Positions 30,681 through 31,267 of a stretch of DNA of 64,000 nt are shown one piece after another (positions within the stretch are counted from its first letter, which is position 1; each line of letters begins with the position of its first letter). Made by a program: the position numbers and the translations under genes. The DNA lies in the NCBI RefSeq assembly GCF_003334385.1, contig NZ_QOWN01000018.1, one strand, 5' to 3'. This DNA is from Escherichia coli. Its GTDB lineage: Bacteria > Pseudomonadota > Gammaproteobacteria > Enterobacterales > Enterobacteriaceae. The notes beneath the pieces were generated by a model. It had not been told where the DNA came from, made no database searches, and saw nothing but the letters and a program-made list of their open reading frames with translations.

Positions 30681-30709
30681 AAAGGCAACCACAGGCTGCC
30701 TTTTTCTTT
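30681..30709 (+). terminator. Terminator-like hairpin abutting the yceD promoter
   Basis: AGGCAACC-ACA-GGCTGCCT (one mismatch) followed by TTTTTCTTT on plus strand. Confidence 0.35.
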
Positions 30710-30736
30710 GACTCTATGACGTTACAAAGTTAATAT
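30708..30736 (+). promoter_or_regulatory. Sigma-70 promoter for yceD-rpmF-plsX
   Basis: TTGACT-N17-TAATAT; -10 ends 9 nt before the yceD ATG. Confidence 0.6.
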
Positions 30737-30745
30737 GCGCGCCCT

Positions 30746-31267
30746 ATGCAAAAGGTAAAATTACCCCTGACTCTCGATCCGGTTCGTACGGCTCAAAAAC
30801 GCCTTGATTACCAGGGTATCTATACCCCTGATCAGGTTGAGCGCGTCGCCGAATCCGTAGTCAGTGTGGACAGTGATGTGGAATGCTCCATGTCGTTCGC
30901 TATCGATAACCAACGTCTCGCAGTGTTAAACGGCGATGCGAAGGTGACGGTAACGCTCGAGTGTCAGCGTTGCGGGAAGCCGTTTACTCATCAGGTCTAC
31001 ACAACGTATTGTTTTAGTCCTGTGCGTTCAGACGAACAGGCTGAAGCACTGCCGGAAGCGTATGAACCGATTGAGGTTAACGAATTCGGTGAAATCGATC
31101 TGCTTGCAATGGTTGAAGATGAAATCATCCTCGCCTTGCCGGTAGTTCCGGTGCATGATTCTGAACACTGTGAAGTGTCCGAAGCGGACATGGTCTTTGG
31201 TGAACTGCCTGAAGAAGCGCAAAAGCCAAACCCATTTGCCGTATTAGCCAGCTTAAAGCGTAAGTAA
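30746..31267 (+). CDS. yceD: DUF177-family protein YceD (ribosome-associated)
   Basis: ORF track 173 aa ([20 protein letters not shown]...). Confidence 0.9.

Follow-up and report, generated by a model that had tools for sequence, protein, structure and literature searches.

The sigma-70 promoter yceDp2 of the Escherichia coli yceD-rpmF operon abuts the yceD start codon almost directly; it is real, functional and already catalogued. It is the working promoter of the operon: RNA polymerase starts there at a C 2–3 nt before the yceD AUG (30743 or 30744), so that the mRNA begins (C)CU-AUG and leaves no room for a Shine-Dalgarno (SD) sequence. Most of these P2 transcripts cover yceD and rpmF and end at a hairpin within the 5′ part of plsX; others continue into plsX, fabH and fabD. 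As a likely overall explanation, we propose that on them the AUG would be recognized 5′-end-proximally, in a leaderless-type manner, a route that is inefficient in E. coli, and that L32 is made from the same RNA through a strong SD. With a weak, SD-less yceD and the strong rpmF SD, one promoter would thus set a fixed ratio of the two proteins, low for YceD and high for L32. Positions below are those of the window, the whole 64,000-nt stretch of E. coli DNA analyzed, and features lie on its plus strand unless stated otherwise. Aligned with NC_000913.3 1145500–1148500 (E. coli K-12 MG1655), the window shows one mismatch and no indels, and the genome coordinate is the window coordinate + 1116048.

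The promoter consists of a −35 hexamer TTGACT (30708–30713) and a −10 hexamer TAATAT (30731–30736) with a 17-nt spacer, and the nine bases GCGCGCCCT (30737–30745) separate the −10 from the yceD ATG at 30746, exactly as the original prediction had described. Its wording of a near-consensus promoter was too generous: the hexamers match the sigma-70 consensus at 9 of 12 positions (5/6 and 4/6), which is decent only, and the spacing falls within the 17 ± 1 bp criterion. The coding sequence that follows (30746–31267; 173 aa, DUF177/PF02620, labeled “23S rRNA accumulation protein” in the annotation) is the first cistron, lacks an SD and shows an N-terminus, MQ(K)vKlP, that distant species share from codon 1. 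Counting hexamer pairs in the 3-kb region returned one site against 2.5 ± 1.5 in shuffled sequences, no excess over chance, and therefore cannot by itself establish yceDp2 as real. We take it as real because of its conservation and its mapped 5′ ends.

Several independent datasets map primary 5′ ends to one of two C residues, −3 or −2 as counted from the ATG (30743–30744). The RegulonDB short-leader table (Lange 2017 S4) lists yceD-rpmF under P2 with the leader “CCTA” and two starts, which corresponds to a start at C 30743; a 2026 preprint credits Tanaka et al. 1989 with both yceDp1 and yceDp2. Yan 2018, using SMRT-Cappable-seq, a method that selects triphosphate 5′ ends and reads whole transcripts, finds a TSS at NC_000913.3 1146792 (window 30744), 2 nt before the ATG, and molecules running from 1146792 to 1147708 that span b1088|b1089 (yceD, rpmF). 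Similarly, Salmonella SL1344 dRNA-seq reports a primary TSS at 1231413 for a yceD ATG at 1231415, a 2-nt leader with the call “Sigma 70 (-10 & -35)”; the orthologous promoter is near-identical and differs in two spacer bases. These starts are positions 7 and 8 after the −10, inside the 6–9 nt downstream at which a sigma-70 promoter is expected to give a triphosphate 5′ end. The expected start about 7 nt after the −10, with 2–3 nt of 5′ UTR, is thus borne out by all three sources, and within the interval proposed for TSS mapping (30740–30746) the published primary ends fall at 30743 or 30744.

Two E. coli TSS surveys lack the ATG-proximal start: Kim 2012 gives only a start at −145, and the supplement of Romero 2014 has no yceD entry. 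This argues against the proximal start being uniformly strong or easily detected. Together with an expectation of about 2.5 such hexamer pairs per 3 kb, it would also suit a reading in which the hexamers match by accident and longer transcripts are processed to give the ATG-proximal 5′ ends. We consider that reading extremely improbable, given that triphosphate-specific methods capture the ends in two species, that four orders share the −35, the spacer length, the −10 and the spacing to the ATG, and that the site is derepressed in ppGpp-null cells, as its discriminator predicts.

The conservation is strict. Among 91 genome-derived loci, 90 have the −35, a 17-nt spacer, the −10, then 9 nt and the start codon; the remaining one, a reduced Sodalis-like genome (L090), has 5 nt, a discriminator length at which the A of the ATG would sit at a usable start position. 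The −35 is invariant apart from TTGACA in one locus and the 17-nt spacer is found in 91/91, while the −10 varies (TAGTAT, TATGAT, TATCAT, TAAGAT) and maintains the pattern TAnnAT. An independent metagenome sample agrees, with the −35 and the whole promoter-ATG architecture present at 105 of 106 loci, the sole non-conforming locus (L204) having lost the entire maf-sraB-promoter region. These metagenome loci were sampled through the L32 N-terminus; nearly all hits of a DNA-pattern scan were Enterobacterales-like, and the scan therefore stops short of the point where the architecture ends phylogenetically. It is present in Erwinia, Pectobacterium, Ewingella, Dickeya and a Malihini symbiont, and beyond them in Salinivibrio (Vibrionales), Dongshaea (Aeromonadales) and a Paraglaciecola-like genome (Alteromonadales), with YceD identity down to 39%. 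Since Enterobacterales share the layout with Vibrionales, Aeromonadales and Alteromonadales, it is probably under selection. This comparative depth is a modest addition to the known facts.

A few individual loci deserve mention. At L204, yceD lies 49 nt after the rluC stop and still has no SD. In a second metagenome locus (L129) the promoter is complete and yceD begins with GTG instead of ATG, an unusual start codon for leaderless-type initiation. A GGAGG in the Salinivibrio spacer was discarded as an SD, because it precedes the start site and is separated from the ATG by 17 nt. One locus (L088, Logan contig SRR27475802_79640) was excluded as an E. coli-like copy with nearly every G changed to A; the reads assembled there had most likely undergone bisulfite conversion or a similar treatment, and its “protein” P0123 figures in the protein collection as a 49%-identity relative.

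Turning to translation, the best anti-SD pairing within 25 nt upstream of the yceD ATG is −0.4 kcal/mol, weaker than or equal to that at about 80% of arbitrary window positions. The claim that yceD has no SD therefore holds, and it holds on either transcript class, the P2 RNA or the one with the 146-nt yceDp1 leader. The second cistron, rpmF (31305–31492 including its SD), carries GAGGAG at 31305–31310 before its ATG at 31319 (−8.8 kcal/mol, 7-nt spacing). Published ribosome profiling describes yceD as “without 5′-noncoding leader” and as translated less efficiently than rpmF: mRNA depth is constant over yceD-rpmF and ribosome density is low on yceD, for which its authors blame the absent leader. 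That YceD is initiated without SD pairing is well supported. Whether yceD counts as leaderless depends on the definition. Under the strict one, in which the 5′ nucleotide is the A of the AUG, it does not, since the mapped ends leave CU or CCU; under the broad one used in surveys (leader ≤6–7 nt and no SD) it does, with a leader of 2–3 nt. In a kasugamycin study, in which leaderless mRNAs are expected to be resistant, yceD has a value of 0.40 and is sensitive, with two 5′ ends coexisting; its authors regard genes with two 5′ ends as not interpretable.

The missing SD could also mean that the annotated ATG is not the true start and that a downstream codon with a ribosome-binding site is used, which would make the short leader irrelevant. 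We give this practically no credence: conservation of MQKVKLP... starts exactly at ATG 30746 in relatives down to 39% identity, the changes after that ATG are synonymous or conservative, as is typical of coding sequence, and the next in-frame ATG is codon 49, within the conserved domain. Nor is there an upstream in-frame start, because an in-frame TAA occupies 30731–30733. Two tiny upstream ORFs, 30716–30733 (MTLQS*) and 30735–30758, were rejected as coupling devices, having no SD and ATGs that vary between genera.

Upstream of yceDp2 lies the small RNA SraB (30541–30709; Rfam RF00077, 210.6 bits against a gathering threshold of 130, full model 1–169), annotated as sraB (b4418) in NC_000913.3. 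Its intrinsic terminator (30680–30709; stem AAAAGGCA/UGCCUUUU at 30680–30704, U-tract to 30709, fold −11.2 kcal/mol) abuts the yceDp2 −35, and the final SraB bases overlap the first two bases of that hexamer. The stem varies in sequence between genera and keeps its pairing, judging the alignment by eye. A second promoter, yceDp1 (30589–30602), lies inside SraB, with a −10 TAAACT at 30589–30594 and starts at 30600–30602; it yields a short SraB form and, by read-through, a yceD-rpmF mRNA with a 146-nt leader. It corresponds to the yceD TSS of Kim 2012 (1145872 in U00096.2, 491 reads), to 1146648 in Yan 2018, to 1146648/49/50 in tagRNA-seq and to a secondary yceD TSS with a 145-nt leader in Salmonella dRNA-seq. 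The original prediction had missed SraB and its terminator, yceDp1 and the GC-rich, stringent-type discriminator of yceDp2.

The SraB model scores 193.2 bits in Salmonella arizonae and does not reach the threshold in Erwinia, Pectobacterium, Dickeya or loci farther away. As full-form SraB is detected solely in close relatives, the promoter-ATG fusion is older than SraB. In Erwinia, Pectobacterium, Ewingella and Dickeya (L082–L085), a TAAACT −10, the GCGAATATTGG motif and the SraB terminator are kept about 140 nt before yceD; the middle SraB hairpin is missing, and the RNA would be much shorter and under the Rfam threshold. The divergent yceF (maf) is transcribed from the minus strand, with starts mapped to 1146625 and 1146700 (window 30577 and 30652), so that its RNA is antisense to a large part of SraB.

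Adding nucleotides ahead of a 5′-terminal AUG reportedly lowers the expression of leaderless mRNAs, a point that counts for a different origin of YceD. The protein would then come mainly from yceDp1 transcripts that read through the SraB terminator, with SD-independent, S1-assisted initiation at an internal AUG and S1 using the AU-rich unstructured stretch 30705–30736; P2 RNAs would chiefly express rpmF and downstream genes, the yceD ORF being a largely untranslated 5′ region. In this direction point the kasugamycin value, which behaves as for leadered mRNAs, and the status of yceDp1 as the only yceD start in Kim 2012. Two tables of Yan 2018 bear on the balance between the promoters: taking their first count columns as read counts, by interpretation rather than from labeled headings, 681 and 595 molecules start at 1146792 against 429 and 320 at 1146648 with the same 3′ end. 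Hence yceDp1 contributes about 35–39% of full-length yceD-rpmF transcripts, a substantial share in favor of the leadered route, and P2 outnumbers it in both tables, which speaks against that route. Furthermore, the 146-nt leader likewise has no SD, and the exact 9-nt distance from −10 to ATG is found in nearly all loci, even where Rfam finds no SraB, a constancy that is hard to explain if only rpmF transcription mattered. On balance we find it unlikely that the leadered RNA is the main source of YceD; that the RNA with the 2–3-nt leader, rather than the one with the 146-nt leader, supplies most of the protein is plausible.

The discriminator GCGCGCC (30737–30743) is of the rRNA/stringent type and nearly invariant among the loci. 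A GCGC beginning after the −10 resembles rRNA promoter discriminators, that of rrnB P1 being GCGCCACC. yceDp2 shares with the stringent promoters of rRNA and ribosomal-protein genes this GC-rich discriminator starting with GCGC, the fact that it drives a ribosomal-protein gene and, in its Salmonella orthologue, a strong derepression without ppGpp. It differs from the stringent rRNA promoters in starting at a C 7–8 nt after the −10 and not at an A/G at 9 nt; UP elements or Fis sites are also part of the comparison, and none is shown for yceDp2. In the Salmonella data the proximal yceD start rises from 15 reads in the wild type to 208 in relA spoT (ppGpp-null) cells, 13.9-fold, as against a 2.1-fold change at the upstream start, and a rise of that size without ppGpp fits the GC-rich, rRNA-like discriminator. 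We infer that yceDp2 would be a ppGpp-repressed, growth-rate-controlled promoter of the ribosomal type.

Placing yceD at the head of an rpmF-plsX-fab operon, as had been proposed, is only partly correct: read-through variants from both starts extend to fabH and fabD (Yan 2018); the main unit ends earlier, at 31660 inside the 5′ end of plsX. There, a terminator-like site (31631–31656) forms the hairpin of a 3′-end region (31631–31660) whose TTS, 1147708 in Yan 2018 (window 31660), is shared by transcripts from both starts. This TTS is labeled “novelTTS” in that dataset and lies 4 nt beyond the 11-bp hairpin, which is itself inside the annotated plsX CDS, about 60–85 nt past the TTG start at 31573. 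Within yceD, synonymous sites are invariant among 79 Enterobacteriaceae at codons 134–151 (31145–31200) and at codons 164–173 (31236–31264), the latter just before the rpmF SD. The block 31145–31200 holds the start of an internal rpmF promoter (Kim 2012 TSS 1146438 in U00096.2; Yan 2018 1147214; about 31166–31167) and also a hairpin at 31175–31191.

A further constraint is seen at the 5′ end of the gene. The block 30729–30771, which takes in the −10, the nine bases, the start codon and the first 8–9 codons with their synonymous sites, is essentially invariant across 80 genomes of Enterobacteriaceae and relatives; variation is seen in the promoter spacer, in the SraB loops and at synonymous sites further into the gene. 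Codon entropy shows synonymous sites of the first 8–9 codons (30746–30771) to be almost invariant in Enterobacteriaceae, with a mean of 0.08 bits over codons 2–9 against 0.61 in the rest of yceD, the first window being the 9th lowest of 163. A hairpin just after the AUG, GGUA-AAAU-UACC, was rejected as the cause of these frozen codons, since by inspection Dongshaea, the Paraglaciecola-like locus and L091 have not retained it. Yan 2018 reports a third start at 1146816 (window 30768), 22 nt within yceD, preceded by a −10-like TAAAAT (30756–30761, codons 4–6); as it lies inside the gene, its transcripts lack the yceD AUG. This element may contribute to the frozen synonymous sites, and we speculate that it could act as a sigma-dependent pause signal for P2 transcripts.

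The fixed 9-nt GC-rich segment, the start codon 2 nt from the 5′ end and the 8–9 frozen codons invite a bolder proposal, namely that the fusion of promoter and yceD ATG is an ancient device under active selection that ties YceD supply to 5′-end-dependent initiation. We put this forward as a long shot. If true, synthesis of YceD, a 23S-rRNA and 50S factor, would respond to the state of the translation apparatus and that of L32 from the same RNA would not; candidate inputs would be the balance of initiation factors, free 70S ribosomes and the choice of start among C −3, C −2 and the A of the AUG.

With respect to known systems, the promoter described here and the yceDp2 of E. coli yceD-rpmF in RegulonDB/EcoCyc are the same object, with a TSS within 1 nt and the same transcription unit. 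Because promoter, start site and missing leader are already in databases and papers, current understanding is unchanged; beyond the catalogued entry, we add how deeply the arrangement is conserved, how it connects to ppGpp data and where it stands relative to SraB. The leaderless mRNAs described in E. coli, both chromosomal (rhlB, pgpA, racR, dicA, ymfK) and from mobile elements (lambda cI from PRM, Tn1721 tetR), resemble that of yceD in having no SD, an AUG at or near the 5′ end and low output. The yceD RNA differs from them in its 2–3 extra 5′ nt, in being the first cistron of a polycistronic housekeeping mRNA and not a monocistronic regulator gene, and in the coexistence of a leadered isoform, kasugamycin resistance not being seen for yceD with its two 5′ ends. 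The same logic appears in acuR-acuI-dddL of Rhodobacter sphaeroides, in which, as another paper summarizes Sullivan et al. 2011, a leaderless first gene is co-transcribed and far less translated; organism and gene family are different there, and acuR is a regulator. The operons rpsP-rimM-trmD-rplS and dusB-fis similarly make abundant and scarce proteins from one mRNA through unequal initiation. Their weak cistrons are internal, with poor initiation regions, whereas yceD comes first and would be weak through its missing leader. The arrangement proposed here would account for the very unequal yields of YceD and L32 from a single mRNA, and would place the operon under ppGpp control like other ribosomal genes.

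Leaderless mRNAs of housekeeping genes are commonly described as nearly absent from E. coli. yceD, and probably also rluC, would be conserved counter-examples and could serve as native test cases for SD-independent initiation. The start region of rluC spans 28878–28892. Kim 2012 places its TSS at the A of the ATG (leader 0, 58 reads) and Yan 2018 at 1144939 (window 28891), 1 nt before the ATG; a −10 TAGAAT is seen at 28878–28883. No SD was found for rluC, the anti-SD pairing being −1.5 kcal/mol, and rluC probably is leaderless as well. A start at or 1 nt before the ATG hints at a logic shared with yceD. rluC encodes a 23S rRNA pseudouridine synthase, so that two genes annotated in connection with 23S rRNA, both without leaders, lie 1.9 kb apart.
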